Virus record (IMG/VR): IMGVR_UViG_2706794667_000003
Source: a virus
Lineage: Duplodnaviria > Heunggongvirae > Uroviricota > Caudoviricetes
Strand: one strand, 5' to 3'
Length of the DNA stretch: 7,255 nucleotides
Made by a program: the position numbers and the translations under genes. The notes below the pieces were generated by a model, which was not told where the DNA came from, searched no databases, and saw nothing but the letters and a program-made list of their open reading frames with translations. Below, piece after piece: positions 1 to 7,255 of the stretch; position 1 is the first letter of the stretch, and every line of letters begins with the position of its first letter.

Positions 1-69
1 CTTTAGAGTAACGTTGGGTTTTTCTGCTCATTATTAGCTCCTTCTGATGCCATTCTATTTCAGGAAGGA

Positions 70-435
70 GTGTCCGTTAAACTCAGGCTACCTCAGTCTG
101 CTGATTTGAGTCGCTACAGTGGCACGGTGGTTAACCGTCCGACGTTTTTTGCTTTTGCAAAAGGCGCGGGTGTGATGGGGGAAGCGGGACCTGAAGCCAT
201 TCTGCCACTGCGTCGCGGTGCTGATGGTAAGCTGGGGGGTGTGGCGGATACTGGTGGTTCAGGCATGGTGATGTTTGCCCCGCAGTACAACATTGAGATC
301 AATAACGATGGCACGAACGGGCAGATAGGTCCGGCTGCCCTGAAGGTGGTTTATGACCTCGGGAAAAAAGCGGCCGCGGACTTTATGCAACAGCAGGCCC
401 GTGATGGTGGCCGGTTAAGTGGAGCATACCGGTAA
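70..435 (+). CDS. H: Tail tape measure protein (lambda gpH-like), C-terminal ~121 codons only; possibly a 3' remnant
   Basis: ORF ends with TAA at 433-435, overlapping the ATG of the gpM homolog (TAATG), the arrangement expected at an H/M junction. Gly-rich C-terminal sequence (GADGKLGGVADTGGSG) is typical of tape measure C-termini. The frame is closed by TAG at 4-6 and all three + frames have stops within nt 1-40, so only the last ~121-143 codons are open. The track start is GTG at 70 with a GGAAGGAG motif immediately adjacent, which is too close for a normal RBS. Confidence 0.55.
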   Translation: MSVKLRLPQSADLSRYSGTVVNRPTFFAFAKGAGVMGEAGPEAILPLRRGADGKLGGVADTGGSGMVMFAPQYNIEINNDGTNGQIGPAALKVVYDLGKKAAADFMQQQARDGGRLSGAYR

Positions 436-2220: not shown

Positions 2221-2562
2221 AAACGGGGGCTGAAGCCATCCGGGCACTGGCCACACAGCTCCCGGCGTTTCGTCAGAAACTGAGTGACGGCTGGTATCAG
2301 GTGCGCATTGCCGGGCGTGATGCAGGTGAAACCGAATTGTCTGCCCGTCNNNNNNNNNNNNNNNNNNNNNNNNNNNNNNNNNNNNNNNNNNNNNNNNNNN
2401 NNNNNNNNNNCGTATTTCTCGTCACTGGATAACATGGTTGCCCAGGGCAATGTTCTGCCCGTTCTGTACGGTGAAATGCGCGTGGGGTCACGTGTGGTTT
2501 CTCAGGAGATCAGCACGGCAGACGAAGGGGATGGTGGTCAGGTTGTGGTGATTGGTCGCTGA
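2118..2562 (+). CDS. I: Tail tip assembly protein I (lambda gpI homolog), interrupted by a 61-nt N run; N- and C-terminal segments are in different frames as given
   Basis: N-terminal segment 2118-2349 translates MAATHTLPLASPGMARICLYGDLQRFGRRIDLRVKTGAEAIRALATQLPAFRQKLSDGWYQVRIAGRD..., matching lambda gpI as recalled. C-terminal segment 2411-2562 translates ...YFSSLDNMVAQGNVLPVLYGEMRVGSRVVSQEISTADEGDGGQVVVIGR*, matching the gpI C-terminus. The two segments are offset by one frame, so the N run does not preserve length. The start is embedded in the 3' end of K, as in lambda. Confidence 0.75.
2350..2410. other. Run of 61 ambiguous bases (N): assembly gap or masked segment inside gene I
   Basis: Direct observation of n characters from 2350 to 2410. 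Flanking coding frames differ (start at 2118 is frame 0, stop at 2560-2562 is in frame 1). Confidence 0.95.
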
Positions 2563-2580
2563 TGCAAAATGTTTTATGTG

Positions 2581-2608
2581 AAACCGCCTGCGGGCGGTTT
2601 TGTCGTTT
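2581..2608 (+). terminator. Intergenic hairpin between I and J (AAACCGCC-TGCG-GGCGGTTT followed by a T-rich tract); candidate intrinsic terminator or attenuator, or mRNA stabilising stem-loop
   Basis: Perfect 8-bp inverted repeat with a 4-nt loop, followed by TTTTGTCGTTT, in the 60-nt I-J spacer. The J RBS (GAGGA at 2615-2619) follows. Confidence 0.4.
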
Positions 2609-2622
2609 ATGGAGCGTGAGGA

Positions 2623-5600
2623 ATGGGTAAAGGCAGCAGTAAGGGGCATACCCCGCGCGAAGCGAAGGACAACCTGAAATCCACGCAGTTGCTGAGTGTG
2701 ATTGATGCCATCAGCGAAGGGCCGGTTGACGGTCCGGTGGATGGATTAAAAAGCGTGCTGCTGAACGGTACGCCGGTCCTGGACAGCGAGGGGAAGACAA
2801 ACTTTTCCGGTGTTACGGTGGTGTTCCGTGCAGGTGAGCAGGAGCAGACACCGCCGGAGGGTTTTGAATCCTCCGGCTCCGAGACGGTGCTGGGTACGGA
2901 AGTGAAATATGACACGCCGATCACCCGGACCATCACGTCGGCAAACATCGACCGTCTGCGCCTGACCTTCGGTGTGCAGGCACTGGTGGAAACCACCTCA
3001 AAGGGTGACCGGAATCCGTCGGAAGTCCGCCTGCTGGTTCAGATACAGCGTAACGGTGGCTGGGTGACGGAAAAAGACATCACCATTAAGGGCAAAACCA
3101 CTTCGCAGTATCTGGCCTCGGTGGTGGTGGGTAACCTGCCGCCGCGCCCGTTTAATATCCGGATGCGCAGGATGACACCGGACAGCACCACAGACCAGCT
3201 GCAGAACAAAACGCTCTGGTCGTCGTACACCGAAATCATCGATGTGAAACAGTGCTACCCGAACACGGCGCTGGTCGGCGTGCAGGTGGATTCAGAGCAG
3301 TTCGGTAACCAGCAGGTGAGTCGCAATTATCATCTTCGCGGGCGCATTCTGCAGGTGCCGTCGAACTATAACCCGCAGACGCGGCAATACAGCGGTATCT
3401 GGGACGGAACGCTTAAGCCAGCATACAGCAACAACATGGCCTGGTGTCTGTGGGACATGCTCACTCATCCGCGCTACGGCATGGGGAAACGTCTTGGTGC
3501 GGCAGATGTGGACAAATGGGCGCTGTATGTCATCGGCCAGTACTGCGACCAGTCAGTGACGGACGGATTTGGCGGCACGGAGCCGCGCATCACCTGTAAC
3601 TCTTACCTGACCACACAGCGTAAGGCGTGGGATGTTCTCAGTGATTTCTGCTCGGCGATGCGCTGTATGCCGGTATGGAACGGACAGATGCTGACGTTCG
3701 TGCAGGACCGACCGTCGGATAAGGTGTGGACCTATAACCGCAGTAATGTGGTGATGCCGGACGATGGCGCGCCGTTCCGCTACAGCTTCAGCGCCCTGAA
3801 GGACCGCCATAATGCCGTTGAGGTGAACTGGATTGACCCAGATAACGGCTGGGAGACGGCGACAGAGCTTGTGGAGGATACGCAGGCCATTGCCCGTTAC
3901 GGTCGTAATGTCACGAAGATGGATGCCTTTGGCTGTACCAGCCGGGGGCAGGCACACCGAGCCGGGCTGTGGCTGATTAAAACGGAACTGCTGGAAACGC
4001 AGACCGTGGACTTCAGCGTGGGCGCAGAAGGGCTTCGCCATGTACCGGGTGATGTCATTGAAATCTGCGATGATGATTATGCCGGTATCAGCACCGGTGG
4101 TCGCGTACTGGCGGTGAACAGCCAGACCCGGACGCTGACGCTCGACCGTGAAATCACGCTGCCGTCCTCCGGTACCACGCTGATAAGCCTGGTTGACGGA
4201 AGTGGCAATCCGGTCAGCGTGGAGGTCCAGTCCGTCACCGACGGCGTGAAGGTGAAAGTGAGCCGGGTTCCTGACGGCGTTGCAGAATACAGCGTGTGGG
4301 GGCTGAAGCTGCCGACGCTGCGCCAGCGTCTGTTCCGCTGCGTGAGTATCCGTGAGAACGACGACGGCACGTATGCCATCACCGCCGTGCAGCATGTGCC
4401 GGAAAAAGAGGCCATCGTGGATAACGGGGCACACTTTGACGGTGACCGGCGCGGCACGGTGAATGGTGTCACGCCGCCAGCGGTGCAGCATCTGACCGCC
4501 GAAGTCACCGCAGACAGCGGGGAATATCAGGTGCTGGCGCGATGGGACACGCCGAAGGTGGTGAAGGGTGTGAGCTTCCTGCTTCGCCTGACCGTGGCAG
4601 CGGACGACGGCAGTGAGCGGCTGGTCAGCACAGCCAGGACGACGGAAACCACATACCGCTTCAGGCAGCTGGCGCTGGGGAATTACAGTCTGACAGTCCG
4701 GGCGGTAAATGCCCGGGGGCAGCAGGGCGATCCGGCGTCGGTATCGTTCCGGATTGCGGCACCGGCAGCGCCTGTCACTATTGAACTGATACCGGGGTAT
4801 TTTCAGATAACGGCGGTCCCGAAACTGGCTGTATATGACCCGACGGTGCAGTTTGAGTTCTGGTTTTCGGAAAAGCGGATTGCGGATATCAGGCAGGTTG
4901 AAACCAGCGCCCGCTATCTTGGCACGGCGCTGTACTGGATAGCCGCCAGTATCAATATCAGGCCGGGCCATGATTATTATTTTTACGTTCGCAGTGTGAA
5001 CACCGTTGGCAAATCGGCATTTGTGGAGGCCATCGGTCGGGCGAGCGATGATGCAGAAGGTTATCTGAATTTTTATAAAGGGTTGATCAATAAAACGCAT
5101 CTCGGCAAGGAGTTGTGGACGCAGATTGATAACGGTCAGCTTGCGCCGGACCTGACTGAAATCAGGACGTCCATTACGAATGTCAGCAATGAAATCACGC
5201 AAACCGTCAATAAAAAACTGGAAAATCAGAGTGCTGCAATCCAGCAGATACAGAAAGTTCAGGTTGATACAAATAATAACCTGAACAGCATGTGGGCTGT
5301 GAAGCTGCAACAGATGAAGGACGGACGCCTTTATATTGCGGGTATCGGTGCCGGTATTGAGAATACGCCAGCAGGAATGCAGAGTCAGGTGCTGCTGGCG
5401 GCAGACAGGATTGCGATGATTAATCCTGCGAATGGCAACACAAAGCCGATGTTTGTTGGTCAGGGCGATCAGATATTCATGAACGACGTGTTCCTGAAAT
5501 GCCTGACGGCTCCGACCATTACCAGCGGCGGTAATCCTCCGGCATTTTCCCTGACACCTGGCGGACGGCTGACGGCGAAAAATGCCGATATCAGCGGTAA

Positions 5601-6102
5601 CGTGAACGCGAACTCCGGGACGCTCAACAACGTCACGATTAATAAGAACTGTCGGGTTCTGGGAAAATTGTCCGCGAACCAGATTGAAGGCGATCTCGTT
5701 AAAACAGTGGGCAAACCTTTCCCACGGGACTCCCGGGCACCGGAGAGGTGGCCATCAGGGACCATTACCGTCAGGGTTTATGACGATCAGCCGTTTGATC
5801 GGCAAATTGTTATTCCCGCGGTGGCGTTTCGCGGTGCTAAACATGAGCGGAAGAATAACAATATTTATTCGTCATGCCGCCTGATAGTGAAGAAAAACGG
5901 TGCTGAAATTTATAACCGAACGACCCTGGATAATACGCTGATATATACGGGTGTTATTGATATGCCTGCCGGTCACGGTCACATGACGCTGGAGTTTTCT
6001 GTATCGGCATGGCTGGTAAATGGCTGGTATCCCACAGCAAGTATCAGCGATTTGCTGGTTGTGGTGATGAAGAAAGCCACTGCAGGCATCACGATTAGCT
6101 GA
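2623..6102 (+). CDS. J: Tail tip host-specificity / central tail fibre protein J (lambda gpJ homolog), 1159 aa, with divergent C-terminal receptor-binding region
   Basis: Translation [54 protein letters not shown]... is near-identical to lambda gpJ as recalled over roughly the first 800 aa. GAGGA RBS lies 4 nt upstream of the ATG. Length is similar to lambda J (about 1130 aa). The last ~350 aa keep only islands of similarity ([58 protein letters not shown]). Confidence 0.92.
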
Positions 6103-6120
6103 ATTTTATAACCCAGATAC

Positions 6121-6148
6121 GGGCACCAGAAATGGTGCCTTTTTTATT
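6121..6148 (+). terminator. Rho-independent terminator downstream of J
   Basis: Stem GGCACC (6122-6127) / GGTGCC (6134-6139) with loop AGAAAT, immediately followed by TTTTTTATT. It lies 19 nt after the J stop. Confidence 0.6.
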
Positions 6149-6169
6149 GCAGAAAAGCGAGAGGTAATT

Positions 6170-6769
6170 ATGCGTAAAGTTTGTGCAGCCATTTTGTCCG
6201 CAGCCATCTGTCTGGCCGTATCCGGTGCGCCTGCATGGGCGTCTGAACATCAGTCCACGCTGAGCGCCGGGTATCTTCAGACCCATACTGATATGCCAGG
6301 CAGCGATGACCTGAAGGGCATTAACGTGAAATACCGTTATGAGTTTACGGACACGCTGGGGCTGATTACGTCATTCAGTTATGCCAACGCTGAAGATGAG
6401 CAAAAAACGCATTACAGCGATACCCGCTGGCATGAGGATTCCGTGCGTAACCGCTGGTTCAGCGTGATGGCGGGGCCGTCTGTGCGCGTGAATGAATGGT
6501 TCAGCGCGTATGCGATGGCGGGCGTGGCTTACAGCCGTGTGTCGACCTTCTCCGGGGATTATCTCCGCGTAACTGACAACAAGGGGAAAACGCACGATGT
6601 GCTGACCGGAAGTGATGGCGGTCGCCACAGCAACACGTCTCTGGCGTGGGGGGCTGGCGTGCAGTTTAACCCGACCGAATCCGTGGCCATTGACCTTGCT
6701 TATGAAGGTTCCGGCAGTGGTGACTGGCGCACTGACGGTTTCATCGTGGGTGTCGGTTATAAGTTCTGA
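6170..6769 (+). CDS. lom: Lom outer membrane protein (Ail/Lom/PagC/OmpX family beta-barrel), 199 aa; lysogenic-conversion moron
   Basis: N-terminal signal peptide MRKVCAAILSAAICLAVSGAPAWA. C-terminus ...AYEGSGSGDWRTDGFIVGVGYKF ends in the Phe typical of beta-barrel OMPs and matches the lambda Lom C-terminus as recalled. GAGAGG RBS lies 7 nt upstream. The gene is flanked by hairpin terminators and sits at the lambda lom position between J and stf. Confidence 0.9.
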   Translation: MRKVCAAILSAAICLAVSGAPAWASEHQSTLSAGYLQTHTDMPGSDDLKGINVKYRYEFTDTLGLITSFSYANAEDEQKTHYSDTRWHEDSVRNRWFSVMAGPSVRVNEWFSAYAMAGVAYSRVSTFSGDYLRVTDNKGKTHDVLTGSDGGRHSNTSLAWGAGVQFNPTESVAIDLAYEGSGSGDWRTDGFIVGVGYKF

Positions 6770-6796
6770 TTAGCCAGGTAACACAGTGTTATGACT

Positions 6797-6822
6797 GCCC
6801 GCTGGTTCAGGCGGGCTTTTTG
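6797..6822 (+). terminator. Rho-independent terminator downstream of lom
   Basis: Stem GCCCGC (6797-6802) / GCGGGC (6811-6816) with loop TGGTTCAG, followed by TTTTTG. Confidence 0.6.
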
Positions 6823-6832
6823 TGGGGTGAAT

Positions 6833-7159
6833 ATGGCAGTAAAGATTTCAGGTGTACTGAAAGATGGGGCGGGTAAACCTGTCGTAAATTGTGCGATTGA
6901 ACTGCGGGCCAGAAGAACCAGTCCGACCGTTGTGGCACACGTTGTTGCCACTTGCGTGACGGACAATAACGGTGCTTATGTGATTGAGGCTGAGCCGGGG
7001 TATTACGAGGTTGCGCTTCACTGTAACGGCTGGCAGCCAACCCGTGTCGGGGATATTGATGTGGCACCGACTGATGCACCGGGGACACTGAACGCGTTTC
7101 TGAATGCACCAAAGGATGGTGATTTACGTCCGGAGGTGATGAAGTGTCAGCGCCAGTGA
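6833..7159 (+). CDS. stf: Side tail fibre protein, N-terminal domain only (lambda Stf / orf-401 N-terminus homolog), 108 aa; truncated or recombined relative to full-length stf
   Basis: Translation MAVKISGVLKDGAGKPVVNCAIELRARR... matches the lambda Stf N-terminus (MAVKISGVLKDGTGKPVQNC... as recalled). Similarity continues to ...PGTLNAFL...RPEV, then the ORF ends (MKCQRQ*) at 7157-7159. GGGGTGA RBS lies 5-6 nt upstream of the ATG at 6833. The upstream in-frame ATG at 6791 lies inside the lom terminator hairpin and is unlikely to be the start. Confidence 0.65.
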   Translation: MAVKISGVLKDGAGKPVVNCAIELRARRTSPTVVAHVVATCVTDNNGAYVIEAEPGYYEVALHCNGWQPTRVGDIDVAPTDAPGTLNAFLNAPKDGDLRPEVMKCQRQ

Positions 7160-7245
7160 TATAAGACGGTAATTCGCCATTTGGATTGTCCGCTCCACCC
7201 AACATGTTGTTTCCTTAAGGTTCTCACACCAGAAAGGACATCAAC

Positions 7246-7255
7246 ATGCTGAGCA
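7246..7255 (+). CDS. First codons (MLS...) of an unidentified ORF running off the 3' edge of the window
   Basis: ATG at 7246 is preceded by GAAAGGA at 7232-7238 (7-nt spacing). Only 3 codons are visible, so no identification is possible. Confidence 0.2.

Follow-up and report, generated by a model that had tools for sequence, protein, structure and literature searches.

The side tail fibre gene (stf) of a lambda-like prophage ends after 108 codons in the DNA studied here, and a second open reading frame starts downstream of the stop codon and runs off the end of the sequence. What cut the fibre gene short, and what is the gene that follows it? The window, as we call the whole stretch of DNA that was analysed, has 7,255 nucleotides and comes from virus record IMGVR_UViG_2706794667_000003. 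The initial annotation took the end of stf for a recombination joint where other DNA had taken the place of the distal fibre and tfa, in a region known as a hotspot for cargo genes. Our analysis arrived at a different answer. We are highly confident that an IS21-family element is inserted between stf codons 104 and 105 of a defective lambda-like prophage, and that the gene is thereby a pseudogene.

The tail genes of the window lie in the order H'-M-L-K-I-J-lom-stf', which is the lambda order and is also that of the corresponding segment (L003) of the closed Shigella sonnei FORC_011 chromosome, CP010829.1. J encodes 1159 aa, and H is present as a C-terminal fragment only. In the window and in L003 alike, the truncated stf lies directly downstream of J and lom, the location expected of a side tail fibre gene. 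The surrounding features are as follows.

Positions 1 to 94, minus strand: end (orfA side) of an IS600 copy that cuts the tape-measure gene H and forms the other scaffold boundary.
Positions 6170 to 6769, plus strand: lom, an ORF for an Ail/Lom outer-membrane protein of 199 aa, directly upstream of stf as in lambda.
Positions 6797 to 6816, plus strand: terminator-like hairpin GCCCGCTGGTTCAGGCGGGC followed by TTTTTG, between lom and stf, a consensus match only.

The identity of lom is based on a Pfam match of the identical FORC_011 gene to PF06316 (Ail_Lom) and on the Ail/Lom family annotation in an E. coli relative. The hairpin listed above, just 3' of lom, is one of two with T runs, the other being at 6121-6140, just 3' of J; such hairpins are consensus matches only, with 1.1 expected by chance in the scan. 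An annotated 'terminator' feature is present in the lom-stf stretch of phages mEp460 and Ayreon. No sigma-70-like site was found by a promoter scan of 6000-7255, and an Rfam scan of the whole window gave no match.

The stf ORF extends from the ATG at 6833 to a TGA at 7157-7159. Its residues 1-104 align without gaps with residues 1-104 of lambda orf-401/Stf (52% identity, E 6e-33), in good agreement with the initial annotation, which had the homolog tracking lambda Stf for about 100 residues. The same residues are identical (104/104) to the N-terminus of WP_046880233.1, a 470-aa protein of E. coli CFSAN029787. Pfam profile PF08400 ('Prophage tail fibre N-terminal') matched the 108-aa ORF with an E-value of 9.8e-37 and 126 bits (cut-off 26.6), and a CarboxypepD_reg-like fold signature was also detected in the product. 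When the stub and the intact fibre were scanned against NCBIfam no meaningful family was returned; it was Pfam that gave the match. Because the intact protein covers profile positions 1-131, and the stub only 1-104 of 134 (Pfam), the break lies inside the N-terminal domain and not, as had been proposed, after it. A full-length side tail fibre would continue into a shaft and a C-terminal receptor-binding part and be followed by an assembly gene, whereas this ORF ends at residue 108. Judged by its sequence, it is a pseudogene fragment without the shaft and receptor-binding end, and not a functional member of the fibre family. A 132-aa minus-strand ORF (6807-7205) lies antisense to stf and crosses the end of the fibre sequence; it was treated as a chance shadow ORF.

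The position of the break was approached with a megablast search of 6770-7255 (486 nt) against complete E. coli genomes, in which the query split in two. Query positions 1-375 matched genes annotated as 'prophage tail fiber N-terminal domain-containing protein' at up to 99.7% identity. Positions 373-486, compared with phage records, showed a 99.1% match to the start of 'istA: IS21 transposase' in phage fiAA91-ss. The left junction itself was found in none of the complete RefSeq E. coli genomes (0 records with at least 80% of the 486-nt query). The break was then placed by a three-way alignment of the window, the intact allele of E. coli CFSAN029787 and the IS of fiAA91-ss. The window follows the sequence of intact stf up to ...GGTGATGAAG (7144) and continues as the IS from TGTCAGCGCCAGTGATATAAG, while the intact allele goes on CGCTTTGAGGAAATGG. 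At the break itself, GATGAAG is followed by CGCTTTGAGG in the intact homolog and by TGTCAGCGCC in the window. The break is between 7144 and 7145, 15 nt before the stop codon, and not after the stop codon as initially annotated. The features around it are listed here.

Positions 6833 to 7144, plus strand: native part of stf, codons 1-104, the last being AAG (K104, 7142-7144), as defined by the alignments and PF08400.
Positions 7145 to 7255, plus strand: IS21-family left end, cut by the window end; 111/111 identical to IS21 positions 1-111 of fiAA91-ss.
Positions 7145 to 7155, plus strand: terminal inverted repeat TGTCAGCGCCA of the IS21 left end.
Positions 7145 to 7159, plus strand: IS-encoded tail of the stf ORF, TGT CAG CGC CAG TGA (C-Q-R-Q-stop), within the IS21 left terminal repeat.
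Positions 7187 to 7197, plus strand: internal copy of the terminal motif, TGTCCGCTCCA, 9/11, within the IS21 left end.
Positions 7232 to 7238, plus strand: istA RBS, GAAAGGA, within the IS21 left end.
Position 7246, plus strand: istA start ATG, equal to IS position 102; the first 10 nt (ATGCTGAGCA) are inside the window, and the ORF then leaves it.

Since the alignment breaks after K104, it is the terminal repeat of the IS that supplies CQRQ and the TGA stop. The stop given earlier after MKCQRQ is indeed present at 7157-7159, but only MK belongs to native Stf. Our results bear out the initial annotation in that stf is truncated, that foreign DNA is found there and that a new gene starts at 7246, with the GAAAGGA RBS and the ATG in place and the ORF running off the window.

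The reference copy of this element is the IS21 of phage fiAA91-ss, which is 2130 bp long (segment L002, 3505-5634). Its ends are the imperfect inverted repeats TGTCAGCGCCA and TGTCAACGCCA (right end as reverse complement), and the 4-bp direct repeat AAGA, a target duplication, is present on both flanks; short direct duplications of 4-8 bp are a feature of IS21-family insertions. It encodes a 390-aa IstA and a 265-aa IstB, which scored 284 bits against NF033546 (IS21 transposase, cut-off 160) and 302 bits against NF038214 (IstB helper ATPase, cut-off 200) in NCBIfam. The start of istA in this copy, IS position 102, falls exactly on window position 7246; by this identity, the ORF starting at 7246 is istA, the IS21 transposase gene. 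Multiple terminal repeats are typical of the IS21 family, and both terminal repeats starting with TGT and internal copies of the motif were observed. The distribution of the element is also that of a multi-copy mobile sequence in unrelated contexts. The 111-nt end was present in 2383 of 5426 complete E. coli genomes, at 1030 chromosomal and 2321 plasmid places, and the E. coli copies that are 100% identical carry the annotation 'IS21-like element IS21 family transposase'. The whole element matched 3782 plasmid records, S. sonnei pINV among them. The catalogue of 12 IS types for S. sonnei 53G includes IS21 (PMC7373316).

The closed genome of FORC_011 allows the locus to be followed past the end of the window. 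There, the stf stump is followed by IS21 positions 1-428, which continue as the IstA N-terminus (MLSREDFYMIKQ...). Annotating the ORF at 7246 from downstream sequence, a check that had been suggested, thus gave the IstA N-terminus in FORC_011 as well as istA in fiAA91-ss. A complete 1264-bp IS600 sits on the opposite strand at IS21 position 427/428, inside istA, with a GTT duplication. IS21 then resumes as far as position 1097, where it abuts a second IS600 without its first ~87 bp (L003 10313-13854). The remainder of IS21 beyond position 1097, istB and the right end among it, has been lost, and the FORC_011 copy is dead, unlike the 2130-bp reference in fiAA91-ss. Directly after the second IS600, stf resumes at about codon 250, in a frame whose product shares 97% identity with residues 250-470 of the intact protein. 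Between the stump and this distal stf, which is followed by an intact 207-aa DUF4376 gene (L003 13855-15099), there are 3.5 kb of IS debris. The DUF4376 gene also follows stf in the intact locus of E. coli CFSAN029787, and it is possible that it is the tail fibre assembly gene. As to whether an intact stf/tfa pair exists further downstream, the answer in FORC_011 is a partial one: only residues ~250-470 of stf remain, and the DUF4376 gene is intact.

A 100% identical IS21, likewise split by an IS600, was observed on S. sonnei pINV (CP109776.1, L012 1501-4897). A composite IS21::IS600 shared by pINV and the chromosome was considered and rejected. The IS600 is at ~160 of IS21 on pINV versus 427 on the chromosome, indicating independent IS600 hits into IS21.

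Cargo genes were seen next to fibre genes in two relatives. In E. coli CFSAN029787, a frameshifted ipaHe type III effector gene follows the fibre genes (L001 8230-9872). In FORC_011, they are followed by a four-gene operon with ABC-3, ABC-3, ABC_tran and ZnuA domains (L003 15300-18749), which we judged, from domain architecture only, to be a Sit-like ABC metal uptake system. Both are located beyond the fibre remnant and are unrelated to the break between 7144 and 7145.

These relatives show that cargo does follow fibre genes (ipaHe in CFSAN029787, the ABC metal-uptake operon in FORC_011), and to that extent the general remark on cargo in the initial annotation holds for relatives. Cargo is not what is found at this breakpoint. 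If recombination had replaced the distal fibre and tfa with a moron or effector gene, the ORF at 7246 would be that cargo gene; instead, the DNA from 7145 is an IS21 end over 111/111 positions and begins exactly at the terminal repeat, the ORF at 7246 is istA, and distal stf and the DUF4376 gene have been retained downstream in FORC_011. No gene that is neither phage nor IS replaces the distal fibre and tfa: IS21 follows the break, and fibre remnants lie downstream of it. We consider a cargo replacement highly improbable.

The FORC_011 layout implies later rearrangements, associated with IS600, that removed ~430 nt of stf together with the right half of IS21. These may have proceeded by adjacent deletion or by recombination between IS600 copies. 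Insertion of IS21 as such was, we infer, a transposition event. The right end and the expected 4-5 bp target duplication are outside the window, and since the right end has been deleted in FORC_011, simple transposition cannot be demonstrated.

The window is a draft scaffold that starts in one insertion sequence and stops in another. Its positions 1-97 are identical to IS600 ends in L003, and E. coli genomes carry the 1264-bp element under the annotation 'IS3-like element IS600 family'. Of gene H, which this IS600 cuts, the C-terminal ~113 codons are left (95-435). Inside gene I, a run of 61 N at 2350-2410 marks a scaffold gap. FORC_011 has 258 bp there (L003 5321-5578), which leaves the window 197 bp short of the real locus. 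With a gap of this kind, an IS at both ends and the known occurrence of misjoins at repeats, it could be argued that stf and IS21 were wrongly joined where a draft scaffold ends, and that no such junction exists in the genome. The same junction is, however, present in closed CP010829.1 and in seven independent draft assemblies, and more than 1000 contigs have the fibre N-terminus cut at or just before the same point.

In detail, the 108-aa product has been deposited, residue for residue, as ALZ55769.1 ('hypothetical protein FORC11_1838 [Shigella sonnei]') and is encoded by the closed FORC_011 chromosome and by 7 draft contigs. Window positions 2411-7255 are 100% identical to FORC_011 and positions 1-2349 are 99.9% identical; the host is almost certainly Shigella sonnei. 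All seven of the draft S. sonnei contigs (L004-L010) end 31 or 53 nt into IS21, and the window ends 111 nt in, because short-read assemblies cannot cross a multi-copy repeat. Contigs ending at such a repeat, taken together with the closed genome, rule out misassembly, and we assign next to no probability to an artefact. The junction in independent assemblies, like the breakpoint, the IS end, the istA start and the intact allele elsewhere, was observed and is not a matter of interpretation. In one-genome-per-species contigs, a collection that probably has no S. sonnei genome, an exact 36-nt search for the left junction gave 0 hits; 0 hits were also obtained when the target-site duplication was sought through the right junction to be expected (IS21 right end, 3-8 nt, stf continuation). 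Versions of the product recorded as 'partial' (99-104 aa) and cut by contig ends occur on more than 1000 S. sonnei contigs. The 102-aa 'partial' form alone is found on at least 1000 contigs, and a single IS junction has in this way given rise to thousands of spurious 'partial' protein records.

The conservation of the 108-aa product across S. sonnei assemblies, and its retention of most of PF08400 and of the CarboxypepD_reg-like fold signature, might suggest a conserved gene with a function of its own, such as a tail-attached stub or a decoy. Set against this, the last four residues and the stop codon are IS sequence, and the other short members of the cluster are 'partial' forms cut by contig ends, not by stop codons. 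No 108-aa ORF with its own stop was seen in unrelated, IS-free lineages. S. sonnei is clonal, which explains the conservation, and the surrounding prophage is a remnant. A stand-alone family of short proteins has, in our estimate, a vanishingly small probability. Such a family, and a fibre gene continued after a frameshift, were the two outcomes that the initial annotation had named as counting against its own reading; neither was found.

A further scenario, which we rate as very unlikely, is that the stub is still made, e.g., by residual late transcription of the prophage, and has been kept because it would, for instance, take up the place where fibres attach to the tails of lambdoid phages that superinfect or share the host, or that read-through of the tail operon drives istA. 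Clonal descent suffices to account for the fixation of the stub in S. sonnei, and the stub is presumably without function.

Based on these observations, the insertion of IS21 into stf can be pictured as follows. IS21 would have transposed into stf between 7144 and 7145. The stf frame enters the terminal repeat of the IS and takes on the four foreign codons for CQRQ before TGA, which leaves a 108-aa stump. The prophage is already a remnant, with H cut by IS600 and the head and lysis genes missing in the closed genome. In the first part of the FORC_011 segment (L003 1-3040), the YbcO and Q-antiterminator genes lead straight into IS3-family fragments, after which comes the H fragment; no lysis, head or proximal tail genes are found between the Q-antiterminator gene and the H fragment. 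As only IS pieces occupy this interval, the prophage is a remnant.

The biological weight of this finding is small: a further gene inactivated by an IS, within a defective prophage of an IS-expanded pathogen. It does carry a caution for annotation. When a gene breaks off close to a contig end in a draft assembly, and a short, seemingly non-coding stretch then leads to a new start codon, this is the typical signature of an IS at which the assembly broke, and IS ends are worth checking before cargo or recombination is invoked. The stf::IS21 junction, which is apparently common to S. sonnei assemblies, could serve as a lineage marker.

Comparison with known systems places each part of the locus. 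The element is a known one, IS21, and the 111 identical nucleotides, the TGT start, the internal motif and the RBS and start of istA are all as expected; IS21, which is common on E. coli and Shigella plasmids, pINV included, has two consecutive genes, istA (HTH plus DDE transposase) and istB (AAA+ helper ATPase), whereas the window contains the first 111 nt only. The gene resembles stf of lambda (orf-401/orf-314 in lambda PaPa) in the J-lom-stf order, in the 52% identity of its N-terminal 104 aa and in PF08400. In both cases stf has been disrupted, by a frameshift in lambda PaPa and by an IS in the S. sonnei prophage. The intact relative differs from lambda Stf in having 470 aa with a different distal part, and the gene after it is the DUF4376 gene. 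Pseudogenisation driven by IS is a central theme of the Shigella study of Hawkey et al. 2020 (PMC7373316), and the pattern of IS decay described there is repeated here: an IS inactivates a gene, more IS insert or cause deletions beside it, and draft assemblies break at the IS. IS21 is a minor IS in S. sonnei compared with IS1, IS2, IS4, IS600 and IS911, and nothing distinguishes this case from known Shigella decay. The stf::IS21 locus is ordinary genome decay, known in kind and annotated in public records.
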